Positions 33,696 to 37,068 of a DNA stretch of 64,000 nt are shown here, piece after piece. The DNA is from a virus (lineage: Duplodnaviria; Caudoviricetes), in the IMG/VR virus record IMGVR_UViG_2740892352_000003, positions 1-64,000 of that record; one strand, 5' to 3'. How positions within the stretch are numbered: position 1 is the stretch's first letter; the number at the start of each line of letters is the position of its first letter. Below the pieces are notes generated by a model. It worked only from the letters and a program-made list of their open reading frames with translations. It did not search any database and had not been told where the DNA came from. The position numbers were made by a program, and so were the translations under genes.

Positions 33696-33704
33696 TGCTA
33701 TAAT
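33696..33704 (+). promoter_or_regulatory. Extended -10 promoter for tracrRNA-like copy A / array 1
   Basis: Perfect TGCTATAAT just upstream of conserved RNA block. Confidence 0.65.
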
Positions 33705-33717
33705 TGTAGTATCAAAT

Positions 33718-33865
33718 ATATAGGGTGATTACGCATCCTAAGTGTGAGATTATCCCAAGTAATTGGGGTTGATACTCACAAAGATAATTACTGAGTGTAG
33801 TGATTATCACCGTCCCAATAAATATTGGGTAAAAACATCTGAAATTTAAAAACACTTGGGATAAA
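33718..33865 (+). ncRNA. tracrRNA-like RNA, copy A
   Basis: Homologous to 35789-35938; four hairpins with covariation; anti-repeat segments TAAAAACATCT (33830-33840) and ATTTAAAAACA (33844-33854). Confidence 0.8.
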
Positions 33866-33934
33866 ACTTATGGACATAAGTAATTGCAATAATTTTAATG
33901 ATTTATGTTGTGCAAAAATGTGTATTTTACAGTA

Positions 33935-34361
33935 CTTTAAGAGTAACATAGGATGTTTTTAAATTTTTTTGGCACCCCCCATATTGGGATATAATAAAAT
34001 CTTTAAGAGTAACATAGGATGTTTTTAAATTTTGTATTAATGCTCAGCATCCCTGTAGGAGTCCATACTTTAAGAGTAACATAGGATGTTTTTAAATAAA
34101 TCTATAGTAGTCTCTTTTATTTCCATAACTCTTCTTTAAGAGTAACATAGGATGTTTTTAAATTTATTCATAACAGTATCTAATTTCATTGATGCAACAC
34201 CTTTAAGAGTAACATAGGATGTTTTTAAATTAAACTTCATTAAACAAAGAACCATCTATACAATGCTTTAAGAGTAACATAGGATGTTTTTAAATAATGT
34301 TATAGCCAATATACTCTCTCCTTATTTATATCTTTAAGAGTAACATAGGATGTTTTATAAA
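33935..34361 (+). CRISPR. CRISPR array 1: 7 repeats CTTTAAGAGTAACATAGGATGTTTTTAAAT, 6 spacers (35-37 nt)
   Basis: Repeats at 33935, 34001, 34068, 34134, 34201, 34266 and degenerate 34332. Confidence 0.97.
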
Positions 34362-34383
34362 ATTATAAAAGGAGGTGTTAAAG

Positions 34384-35769
34384 ATGATAAGTACAAGAAA
34401 AATAAAAGTAAGATGTGATGATAGTACATTTTATACATTCTTTAGGCAAGAACAAAGAGAACAAAATAAAGCTCTAAATATTGGTATAGGTATAATACAT
34501 GCTAATGCAGTATTACATAATGTAGACAGTGGAGCAGAAAAGAAACTAAAGAAAAGTATAGAAGGATTACAAGGTAAAATTGATAAACTTAATAAAGACT
34601 TAGAAAAAGAGAAGATAACTGATAAAAAGAAAGAGGAAGTATTAAAAGCGATTGAAACTAATAAAAAGATATTAGATGGAGAGAAGAAGGCTTTTAAAGA
34701 ATCAGAAGAATACAGAAAAGGAATAGATGAACTTTTCAAAAATACATACTTAAAATCTAATACATTAGACCATGTTTTAGATAGTATGGTTAATATTCAG
34801 TACAAAAGAACTTTAAGCCTAGTTACACAAAGGATTAAAAAAGACTATAGTAATGATTTTGTAGGAATTATAACAGGACAACAAAGTTTAAGAAACTATA
34901 GAAATGATAATCCGCTAATGATTAGTAATCAACAACTTAATTTCAAATATATAGATGATACTTTTTATTTGGATATTATGTGTGGATATAGGTTAGAGGT
35001 TGTTTTAGGTAAAAGGGATAATGAGAATGTAAATGAACTTAAATCAACTTTAGAGAAGGTTATAAGTAAAGAATATAAGGTTTGTGATAGTTCTATGCAG
35101 TTTGCTAAAAACAATAAAGATATAATATTAAATCTAGTTATAGACATTCCTCAAAACTCTAATGTATATAAACCAGTAGAAGGCAGAACCTTAGGTGTTG
35201 ATTTAGGTATAGCAGTTCCAATTTATATGTGTTTAAATGATGATACATACAAAAGAAAAGGTCTTGGTGACATTAATAACTTCTTAAGAGTCAGACAACA
35301 GATGCAAACTAGAAGAAGAAAACTTCAAAAAGACTTAACTCTTACAAATGGAGGAAAGGGTCGTAAAAAGAAAACTCAATTACTTGATAAACTACAAGAA
35401 AATGAAAGAAACTTTGTAAAAACATATTCTCATGCACTAAGTAAAAGAGTAGTAGAATTTGCTAAAAGTAATAAGTGTGAATATATAAACATAGAGAAAT
35501 TAACTAAAGATGGATTTGATAATATTATCTTAAGAAACTGGTCATATTTTGAATTGCAGAAAATGATTGAGTATAAAGCTGAAAGAGAAGGAATTGCTGT
35601 AAGATATGTAAATCCGGCATATACAAGTCAGAAGTGTTCAAGATGTGGTGAGATAGACAAGGAAAATAGACAGACACAAGCAAATTTTAAATGTACTAAA
35701 TGTGGATTTGAACTCAATGCAGACCATAATGCAGCTATAAATATAGCCAGAAGTATAGAATTTGTATAA
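34384..35769 (+). CDS. cas12f1: Type V-F effector Cas12f1-like (TnpB superfamily), 461 aa, RuvC intact
   Basis: AGGAGG RBS, ATG 34384; RuvC-I GVDLG, RuvC-II INIEKL, Zn ribbon CSRC/CTKC, RuvC-III NADHNAAINIA; GGKGRKKK and LRNWSY Cas12f1-type motifs; flanked by arrays; no TnpA. Confidence 0.88.
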   Translation: MISTRKIKVRCDDSTFYTFFRQEQREQNKALNIGIGIIHANAVLHNVDSGAEKKLKKSIEGLQGKIDKLNKDLEKEKITDKKKEEVLKAIETNKKILDGEKKAFKESEEYRKGIDELFKNTYLKSNTLDHVLDSMVNIQYKRTLSLVTQRIKKDYSNDFVGIITGQQSLRNYRNDNPLMISNQQLNFKYIDDTFYLDIMCGYRLEVVLGKRDNENVNELKSTLEKVISKEYKVCDSSMQFAKNNKDIILNLVIDIPQNSNVYKPVEGRTLGVDLGIAVPIYMCLNDDTYKRKGLGDINNFLRVRQQMQTRRRKLQKDLTLTNGGKGRKKKTQLLDKLQENERNFVKTYSHALSKRVVEFAKSNKCEYINIEKLTKDGFDNIILRNWSYFELQKMIEYKAEREGIAVRYVNPAYTSQKCSRCGEIDKENRQTQANFKCTKCGFELNADHNAAINIARSIEFV

Positions 35770-35788
35770 TTAAATAGATATAATATAA

Positions 35789-35938
35789 ATATAGGGTGAT
35801 TACGCATCCTAAATGTGAGGTAATCCCAAGTGATTTGGGATAGGCACTCGCAAAGATAGTTGTTAAATGTAGCAATTATCATCGTCCTAGCGAATCGCTA
35901 GGTAAAAACATCTGAAATTTAAAAACACTTGGGATAAA
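35789..35938 (+). ncRNA. tracrRNA-like RNA, copy B
   Basis: TATAAT at 35779-35784; same fold as copy A; anti-repeats 35903-35913 and 35917-35927. Confidence 0.82.
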
Positions 35939-36007
35939 TTTGATTAATGTTAGTATTTACAATGGTTATGTTGTTTTATTTTATTTAAGAATGTGCATTT
36001 TTAAGTG

Positions 36008-37026
36008 GTTGAAGAATAACATGAGATGTTTTTAAATTAAGTCATATATCCTTTTACCTTCTGCTTTACAATAGTTGAAGAATAACATGAGATGTTTTTA
36101 AATTCAACAACATAGCTATATCCTTTGAACTTAGATGTAGTTGAAGAATAACATGAGATGTTTTTAAATTAATATTCTTTAACTTGCTCTGGTGCAGTTT
36201 CATACGTTGAAGAATAACATGAGATGTTTTTAAATCTTAGCTTCACTTTCTGCAAGTCAAGCTTTTAGAAGTTGAAGAATAACATGAGATGTTTTTAAAT
36301 TTATTTCCTATAGCTTTAGATGTGCAATATACTCCCGTTGAAGAATAACATGAGATGTTTTTAAATCTTAATAGTATCTTGTTTTGACTTTAAATCAAGA
36401 TGTTGAAGAATAACATGAGATGTTTTTAAATTTGAGTATATTTTGATATTAAGAAAAGATAATCCTCTTGTTGAAGAATAACATGAGATGTTTTTAAATT
36501 ATTTAAAGGAGATGATGATTTGATAGAAAAACAATTGTTGAAGAATAACATGAGATGTTTTTAAATATATTGCTTAAATGATTATATCCTATACCAACTC
36601 GTTGAAGAATAACATGAGATGTTTTTAAATTTTAAAGATGCTATGTATGTAGCATCTAATTTAGAAAGTTGAAGAATAACATGAGATGTTTTTAAATGTA
36701 TAAAATTGATGATGATATTAGGTTCATTGAAGGTTGAAGAATAACATGAGATGTTTTTAAATTGATCCATGAAATATTTCCTGATGAGGATAATCTTTGT
36801 TGAAGAATAACATGAGATGTTTTTAAATCACACACCTTTAGTTAACCAAACCATTCTACTTCCGGTTGAAGAATAACATGAGATGTTTTTAAATTGTATT
36901 TAAATGAGTTGTAAAATGTCTTTTAATATAGTTGAAGAATAACATGAGATGTTTTTAAATTCTACTATCGCAAAGTCAATATTACGACCCTCTTTGGTTG
37001 AAGAATAACATGGGATGTAAAAATAA
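36008..37026 (+). CRISPR. CRISPR array 2: 16 repeats GTTGAAGAATAACATGAGATGTTTTTAAAT, 15 spacers (34-38 nt)
   Basis: 15 identical repeats from 36008 to 36931 plus degenerate terminal repeat at 36997; terminator follows. Confidence 0.98.
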
Positions 37027-37036
37027 ATATTTATAT

Positions 37037-37068
37037 AAAACACTTACTTAAAGAGTAGGTGTTTTTTT
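37037..37068 (+). terminator. Rho-independent terminator after array 2
   Basis: AAAACACTTACT-TAAAG-AGTAGGTGTTTT + T-run. Confidence 0.8.

Follow-up and report, generated by a model that had tools for sequence, protein, structure and literature searches.

A probable type V-F1 CRISPR-Cas12f interference cassette with two tracrRNA-array modules in a Clostridioides difficile prophage

Among the tail genes of a prophage of Clostridioides difficile lies a small gene of the TnpB/Cas12f kind with an array of CRISPR repeats on either side. This arrangement raises the question of whether the gene and arrays form a working CRISPR interference system and, if so, what the system targets and how its arrays gain spacers. 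The DNA analyzed here, referred to as the window, is the first 64 kb (positions 1 to 64,000) of the 240,550-base provirus record IMGVR_UViG_2740892352_000003 of IMG/VR. Coordinates are those of the window, in which the cassette occupies positions 33696-37068 on the + strand. It was concluded with high confidence that the cassette is a type V-F1 CRISPR-Cas12f interference system, carried by a prophage and lacking adaptation genes of its own. The locus combines the features by which type V-F1 is recognized, namely, a small effector with a TnpB core, a RuvC triad and zinc ribbon, arrays of variable content, an RNA with an anti-repeat, and a predicted 5' protospacer adjacent motif (PAM).

The effector and its two RNA-array modules

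The effector gene, cas12f, encodes a protein of 461 amino acids (aa), and its database homologues are likewise 461 aa long with 100% coverage. The protein matched the Pfam family Cas12f1-like_TNB (7.9e-26), along with OrfB_IS605, and the broad guided_TnpB subfamily of NCBIfam (8.6e-53). The scores for the narrower TnpB models of NCBIfam were far below their cut-offs, at 70 versus 425 bits for IS200/IS605 TnpB and 46 versus 350 bits for IS607 TnpB. The Cas12f2 model of NCBIfam gave 122 bits against a cut-off of 450.

When solved structures were searched by sequence, the best match was 8hr5_A over the full length (E 1.3e-101), followed by 9nzp_A (2.2e-80), 9nzo/9nzr (5e-56), AsCas12f (~1e-42), and then 9nzq, 9i8y, and Un1Cas12f1. 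Seven more Cas12f orthologues outranked every TnpB, ISDra2 TnpB being found at ~1e-6. The entry 8HR5 is CnCas12f1, 9NZP is RhCas12f, 9NZO/9NZR are Al3Cas12f, and 9NZQ/S/T are OsCas12f (PMC13186708). The AlphaFold2 model of the protein had a mean predicted local distance difference test score (pLDDT) of 84.1 and a predicted template modelling score (pTM) of 0.46. A Foldseek search with this model again placed 8hr5_A at the top (E 1.9e-38, 44% identity), with the first TnpB at rank 23; the TM-scores of ~0.47 were low, as expected for a monomer modelled without RNA. Moreover, the RuvC acids D273, E371, and D447 and the zinc-ribbon cysteines C418, C421, C437, and C440 were invariant in 18/18 aligned homologues (49–88% identity), and these residues align with the motifs of CnCas12f1.

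The elements of the cassette and the evidence for each are as follows.

33696-33704, + strand: extended -10-like element TGnTATAAT upstream of module 1, putative, found by eye
33718-33865, + strand: tracrRNA-like gene 1, 148 nucleotides (nt), four stem-loops followed by an anti-repeat (covariance model, 171 bits)
33866-33934, + strand: leader 1, 69 nt, AT-rich and unstructured (fold against shuffles, z 0.66)
33935-34361, + strand: CRISPR array 1, 7 repeats and 6 spacers
34367-34374, + strand: ribosome-binding site of the AGGAGG type, 9 nt upstream of the cas12f ATG
34384-35769, + strand: cas12f, 461 aa and stop (open reading frame, homologues, and Pfam, NCBIfam, PDB, and Foldseek matches)
35765-35784, + strand: two putative -10-like TATAAT elements between the cas12f stop and module 2, found by eye
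35789-35938, + strand: tracrRNA-like gene 2, 150 nt, paralogue of gene 1 (covariance model, 171.7 bits)
35939-36007, + strand: leader 2, 69 nt
36008-37026, + strand: CRISPR array 2, 16 repeats and 15 spacers
37037-37068, + strand: terminator hairpin and U-run (-12.9 kcal/mol, z -5.4, 0/200 shuffles as good)

The two modules resembling trans-activating CRISPR RNA (tracrRNA) are paralogous, with 78–90% identity. Their alignment comprised eight sequences, the two module copies from each of four C. difficile loci, and RNAalifold gave a consensus of four stem-loops with 46 pairs, 6 of which had both sides changed with pairing kept. The segment after the last stem, identical in both modules, holds a 10–11-nt complement of repeat positions 17-26, and cofolding paired exactly this anti-repeat with the 3' part of the repeat. 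At the locus L007, which lies in a complete C. difficile chromosome and carries a 98%-identical gene, the A-to-G change at repeat position 17 of module 2 is matched by a T-to-C change in the anti-repeat, giving one covarying pair. The covariance model built from the eight sequences also matched homologous RNAs in other species, next to the gene's relatives there, with two copies at the locus L055 (E 6.6e-11 and 2.8e-9) and weaker single matches at L059, L009, L053, L056, and L058.

The repeats of array 1 are 30 nt long with a degenerate last copy, and the spacers are 35–37 nt; the last repeat of array 2 is also degenerate, and its spacers are 34–38 nt. Exactly 69 nt separate each tracrRNA-like module from its first repeat. 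The repeat variants of the two arrays differ at 5/30 positions, all within the 5' half, and the last 14 nt, on the spacer side, are the same in both variants bar one position; thus, one effector can plausibly serve both arrays. The orientation of the arrays was taken from the degenerate terminal repeats, the trailer spacers shared between strains, and the 5' PAM. The strand call of Rfam was not used; Rfam found no tracrRNA family, and its CRISPR-DR3 match lay on the minus strand of array 2 below threshold (39.1 versus a 41-bit cut-off).

A preliminary description of this DNA, made from the letters alone, had listed these elements, and every element, count, and coordinate was found as given there. 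Its picture of two flanking tracrRNA-leader-array modules was borne out by the paralogy, the shared consensus fold, and the anti-repeat, and its naming of a Cas12f1-type protein nearest CnCas12f1, with all three catalytic acids and the zinc ribbon, agreed with the ranking by sequence and by fold and with the invariant residues. Comparison of the protein with solved Cas12f and TnpB structures put Cas12f at the top and TnpB far behind, and the NCBIfam TnpB cut-offs were unreached. The promoter claim stood in part: the TGnTATAAT-like -10 element is visible by eye and aligns with a TATAAT upstream of module 2, but it was absent from the list of a generic promoter scan, which returned 17 sites in this AT-rich stretch, fewer than the shuffle mean of 26.2. 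Similarly, the generic terminator scan listed none, though the hairpin at 37037-37068 folds well. A second hairpin (33650-33685, z -7.0) closes the gene upstream of the cassette. Four RNA runs with the same species label came from strains without the locus, and their reads fell only on the flanks and on a protospacer-like stretch at 34164-34199.

Targets, the TCA motif, and spacer turnover

Four C. difficile loci (the window, L007, L023, and L024) were compared, and their arrays were used to seek targets in a phage collection and by a plasmid search. The layout array-cas12f-array was the same in 4/4 loci, and the spacers differed between loci, with 54 spacers in total and 52 unique. Protospacers were found for 21 of the 52 unique spacers, 11 in C. 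difficile phages and 10 in the plasmid LIBA6289. The target phages include CDMH1, phiCDKH02, phiCD211/phiCDIF1296T, ES-S-0107-01, and ES-S-0173-01, as well as pCD1602_4, phiCD6356, AR1074-1, and the phiCDHM13/phiCD38-2 group. LIBA6289 (NZ_MF547664.1; L066, L067) is a 68.9-kb C. difficile plasmid with a MOBP relaxase and conjugation genes.

Among the phage protospacers, TCA occupied positions -3 to -1 in 10/11, and the remaining one, which was the weakest match (32/36), had TCT. TCA also preceded 9/10 plasmid protospacers, and it precedes the tenth if that protospacer is taken to begin 1 nt later. Exact 5'-TCA was therefore present in 19/21 protospacers against a background TCA frequency of 0.017 (P ~7e-32), and the 3' flanks of the protospacers showed no pattern. 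These natural protospacers predict TCA as the 5' PAM of the system. The two genuine type I-B spacers of the L007 prophage had CCA and CCG motifs. According to a study of C. difficile type I-B, adaptation prefers CCN and the interference consensus is YCN, with TCA working less well (PMC8406132).

Within the window, 8 of the 21 spacers matched the plasmid and 4 matched phages (12 at ≤4 mismatches), and 9 were unmatched in the collections searched. The eight plasmid spacers, namely spacers 1-3 of array 1 and spacers 2, 4, 6, 7, and 8 of array 2, matched LIBA6289 at 0–1 mismatch, and two L023 spacers matched it at 0 and 2 mismatches; the phage-matching spacers are spacer 4 of array 1 and spacers 10, 12, and 13 of array 2. 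All ten LIBA6289 protospacers lie on one strand (P 0.016), a bias that is only mildly unexpected and at most suggestive because that strand holds twice as many TCA sites as the other (1578 versus 815). The locus had been described beforehand as a self-contained weapon against phages. The phage targets (4/21 spacers) agree with this, but a mobilizable plasmid is targeted too (8/21), and the system is self-contained for interference only, since no adaptation genes are linked to it.

The comparison of arrays also showed how spacers turn over. Spacers 14-15 of array 2 in the window are shared with L023, where they are likewise adjacent and near the trailer and where one more spacer follows, and the two arrays diverge toward the leader end. 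New spacers enter at the leader end of both arrays; shared old spacers at the trailer and differing spacers on the leader side are the usual signature of such polarized acquisition, and for array 1 the polarity was taken from its degenerate last repeat. Moreover, plasmid-derived spacers occupy the leader-proximal halves of both arrays; thus, the activity of the two leaders appears to have overlapped in time.

Weighing the readings and the source of spacers

If the cassette works as a V-F1 system, transcription from upstream of each module would yield a tracrRNA and a precursor of CRISPR RNA (crRNA), and array 1 probably shares a transcript with cas12f, given that the ribosome-binding site begins 6 nt after the last repeat. 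The anti-repeat of the tracrRNA would pair with either repeat variant at the conserved 3' part, and a Cas12f homodimer, by homology to dimeric structures, would bind the dual RNA, recognize double-stranded DNA with 5'-TCA beside the protospacer, and cut it via a single RuvC site. The lysogen would then exclude rival phages, including sister myoviruses, siphoviruses, and large phages like phiCD211, and would also exclude a conjugatively mobilizable plasmid family, protecting prophage and host alike. In this way the prophage may give its host a second, independent DNA-targeting immunity with a PAM unlike that of the native I-B system. Phage and plasmid traffic shapes the spread of accessory genes in C. 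difficile. The natural spacer record alone yields the PAM and a target list, and the paralogous tracrRNAs yield a fold supported by covariation that could guide the design of a single-guide RNA for this 461-aa nuclease, for which homology makes a role as a compact editor plausible.

Several points weigh against reading the cassette as an interference system. The covariation of the tracrRNA-like modules represents approximately two independent lineages (module 1 versus module 2) with a few strain changes, because nearly all RNA variation lies between the two modules. The repeat:anti-repeat duplex is short and AT-rich, and its energy does not clearly beat that of shuffled repeats, which reached it in 31/500 trials for module 1 and 115/500 for module 2. 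The cassette lacks linked adaptation genes, and TCA differs from the PAM of the only cas1-bearing system of the carrier genome. Lastly, spacer 12 of array 2 (36763-36798) matches positions 127158-127193 of the same record at 35/36 with TCA, its single mismatch being at PAM-proximal position 5, inside a ParM-like gene of a part that resembles phiCD211.

This last match bears on the alternative that the locus is an inactive relic, whose arrays and cas12f are carried by the prophage without interference. Segments of the record beyond the window (64001-84000, L064; 117000-136999, L063) are 95–97% identical to the ~130-kb phages phiCD211 and phiCDIF1296T; accordingly, at least two different phages are contained in the 240-kb provirus record. 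Should the record represent one genuine genome, the lysogen may hold a target one seed mismatch from cutting, which fits either escape or a silent system, and the co-resident phiCD211-like phage offers a natural test between escape and silencing. Moreover, spacer 4 of array 1 (34164-34200) has a near-match with TCA in the prophage's own tail/NlpC gene (41588-41624, minus strand; 32/37), although the same spacer matches the sister phages CDMH1 (35/37) and phiCDKH02 (33/37) better. A relic is nevertheless improbable. The gene has an unbroken reading frame with invariant catalytic residues, 28 near-identical variants occur on 368 contigs, spacer content changes from strain to strain in a leader-polarized way, the PAM is kept strictly (19/21), and the position of the one mismatch in the co-resident target fits escape.

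It is less probable still that the host type I-B Cascade services the arrays and that the neighboring TnpB-like gene is unrelated to them. The V-F repeats are nearer to the C. difficile I-B repeat than shuffles are, as only 0/300 and 4/300 shuffles reached the observed score, and V-F and I-B spacers have the same length. TCA falls within the YCN interference consensus, where it is weaker than CCN (PMC8406132), and shorter relatives of the gene (frames of ~407–474 aa; L053, L057, L058, L060, L062) adjoin arrays with I-B-like repeats. However, each array is preceded by a conserved, structured RNA whose anti-repeat covaries with the repeat, and gene, RNA, and array occur together in other species as well as in 4/4 C. 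difficile loci. The repeat's 3' end, from which the I-B 5' handle would come, is unlike that of the I-B repeat, and the genuine I-B spacers of the same prophage use CCN and not TCA. An IS200/IS605-type TnpB nuclease that is guided by an omega-RNA and serves to maintain a transposon instead of defending the cell would accord with the public annotation of near-identical proteins as 'transposase' or 'InsQ/TnpB family' and with the OrfB_IS605 and guided_TnpB matches, but this is hardly credible given scores far below the NCBIfam cut-offs, no Y1 transposase within ~60 kb, multi-spacer arrays of varying content on both sides of the gene, and the eight ordinary TnpB copies of the carrier genome, which are only 25–28% identical to the cas12f product and only over the C-terminal third.

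With the V-F1 interference reading preferred, the source of the spacers becomes the next question. No cas1, cas2, or cas4 is linked to the cassette, no Cas1 or Cas4 family match was found in the 240,550-base record, and the I-B repeat was absent from this record at ≤3 mismatches. The only Y1 (IS200/IS605 TnpA) match of the record lies at 97837-98169 on the minus strand (L065), ~62 kb from cas12f, and has no relation to the locus. The claim that neither cas1/2/4 nor a transposase is linked was thus upheld. The complete carrier genome has a single cas1, 1.3 Mb from cas12f. A survey of the family covered 112 species genomes, 8 of which hold a cas12f relative; in five other cas12f-positive genomes, cas1 is present and never linked. 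Unlinked cas1 in carriers says little, since cas1 is common in the family (69/112 genomes, and 7/8 of the cas12f-positive ones) and one cas12f-positive genome (G032) has none, so that the co-occurrence is uninformative.

The arrays beside the shorter relatives, with repeats of the type I-B kind found in this bacterial family, hint at a kinship of V-F with I-B repeats or at shared arrays. Integration by host I-B machinery has already been proposed for V-F1 systems that co-occur with I-B (10.1101/2024.04.09.587696). It is favored here by the likeness of the repeats, the equal spacer lengths, the I-B-like arrays of the shorter relatives, and the similar trailers described below. The integrase would have to act in trans and is most likely the host type I-B Cas1-Cas2. 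Plain I-B adaptation is argued against by the strict TCA, set beside the CCN selection reported for that system (PMC8406132). As a tentative and rather doubtful extension, Cas12f and not the host Cas4 may pick TCA, its own interference driving uptake, with host I-B Cas1-Cas2 integrating the spacers. This would fit the strict TCA (19/21) unlike CCN, the I-B-like repeats with equal spacer lengths, the single unlinked cas1, and the filling of both leader halves from one plasmid with ten protospacers on one strand. If true, immunity would be a hybrid in which the prophage gives the effector and the choice of PAM and the host lends the integrase. A strict PAM without linked adaptation genes makes the locus a tractable case for V-F1 spacer acquisition, a question already in print.

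Prophage setting and related systems

The source element is a C. difficile myovirus prophage resembling phiCDKH02 and CDMH1, and its structural region is 85–88% identical to the myoviruses phiCDKH02, CDMH1, phiMMP01, and phiC2. The cassette lies among the tail genes. Upstream are the tail sheath, the tail tube, an XkdN-like protein, a small repressor-like protein, an Ant anti-repressor, and a small PHROG protein, and downstream are a PHROG protein of no assigned function and then the tape-measure protein. Reads of other strains leave the shared sequence at ~33661 and re-enter it at ~37037-37053, and one such strain has a degenerate I-B-like repeat immediately before the shared terminator. At L007, a 12-repeat I-B array occupies the same slot, 1.7 kb upstream of the V-F module, and I-B-type arrays are present in several sequenced C. 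difficile phages. From the read junctions and the position of the L007 array, the cassette occupies a known array slot of these prophages. The cassette thus sits in a myovirus prophage between the XkdN-like tail gene and the tape-measure gene. The preliminary description had placed it in a C. difficile prophage and had noted orphan arrays at this tail slot in related prophages, and both statements accord with these results.

At L007 (3815-3960), the I-B prophage array is followed by a degenerate last repeat and a terminator that resemble those after array 2 (window, 36997-37070). This resemblance suggests an origin of the V-F cassette in the I-B array slot or its recombination into that slot. 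Orphan I-B prophage arrays of C. difficile occupy the same tail slot as the cassette, resemble it in the downstream terminator, the length and ends of the repeat, and the spacer length, and likewise target other C. difficile phages. They depend, however, on host Cascade-Cas3 and CCN (PMC8406132), whereas the present cassette encodes an effector and tracrRNAs of its own and has TCA as its predicted PAM. Its repeat bears only a distant likeness to that of the host I-B system, and its PAM is not CCN, so that the arrays here are not of the orphan I-B kind.

The gene is widely spread, with 28 protein variants of ≥98% identity on 368 contigs, one of which occurs on 226; all source-named contigs among these variants are labelled C. 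difficile. Among the isolated phages of the phage collection, from which records very near the window may be omitted, no close homologue was found (best 34% identity). Two arrays flanking cas12f were seen only in C. difficile among the loci examined. At L055 (G017 contig 11, 3544-4740), in another species of the same bacterial family, the protein is 60% identical, the tracrRNA is homologous (E 6.6e-11), the repeat is similar, and cas1 is not linked; here, however, the order is a tracrRNA, a 13-repeat array, a second tracrRNA directly upstream of cas12f, and then cas12f, with no downstream array. Since L055 holds two, a pair of tracrRNA copies is not unique to C. difficile. Other layouts were tracrRNA-array-cas12f (L053, L058) and cas12f-tracrRNA (L009, L056, L059). 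At L008 (Clostridium sp.), a relative with 22 repeats follows a holin-endolysin module, and no Cas-adaptation Pfam match was found among the eight open reading frames scanned.

Systems of this kind are already known, as type V-F1; most lack an adaptation module, and mobile elements often carry them. The absence of Cas1/Cas2 from V-F1 and its co-occurrence with I-B have been discussed (10.1101/2024.04.09.587696), and a review describes V-F as enriched on plasmids (PMC11656645). For Clostridium novyi sensu lato, Cas14a/Cas12f beside solitary arrays on an element like a chromosomal island of the phage-inducible type (PICI) and TnpB/Cas14a-like genes on toxin phages have been reported (PMC8473940). 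CnCas12f1, the C. novyi V-F1 protein of 8HR5, resembles the present effector in its full-length alignment, long helical recognition (REC) region, RuvC triad, and zinc ribbon, and in lying on a mobile element beside a solitary array (PMC8473940). The two differ in length (497 aa in the 8HR5 chain versus 461 aa here), in location (a PICI-like island versus a prophage tail module), and in the two tracrRNA-array modules that here enclose one gene. CnCas12f1 is also described as having a C-rich PAM (Su et al. 2024), in contrast to the TCA predicted for the present system from its own protospacers.

In 2023, a brief report described cas12f in C. difficile ribotypes RT001 and RT010, on a mobile region, as the first type V system of the species (PMC10806358). 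It shares with the present system the species, a single small effector, the mobile region, and coexistence with I-B. It is probably the same gene, because the stated size of '1380' fits ~460 codons (PMC10806358). The text consulted gives no tracrRNA, array layout, PAM, targets, or prophage position. Literature searches, with the supplements of PMC10806358 and 10.1101/2024.04.09.587696 (S3/S4 of which hold V-F PAM predictions) outside their scope, met no description in C. difficile of the dual module, of TCA as the PAM, of the position in the tail slot, or of the set of targets. Accordingly, the dual-module layout, which had been thought unusual, was not found described elsewhere, but the overall novelty had been overrated, as Cas12f was already reported in C. 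difficile. The new elements here are the layout with two modules, TCA as the motif, the set of targets, and a nearly perfect target within a co-resident phage.

Two further observations concern plasmids and phages. A homologue with ~70% nucleotide identity, annotated as a transposase, is carried by the 136-kb Clostridioides sp. plasmid pESS17301a (L068; NZ_CP067354.1, 133387-134751), and no match to the tracrRNA model was found near it. Stretches 65–69% like array 2 occur in large Clostridium botulinum group III plasmids or phages (NC_015417.1, NC_015426.1, and NZ_KT897275.1), and these are probably arrays with related repeats.

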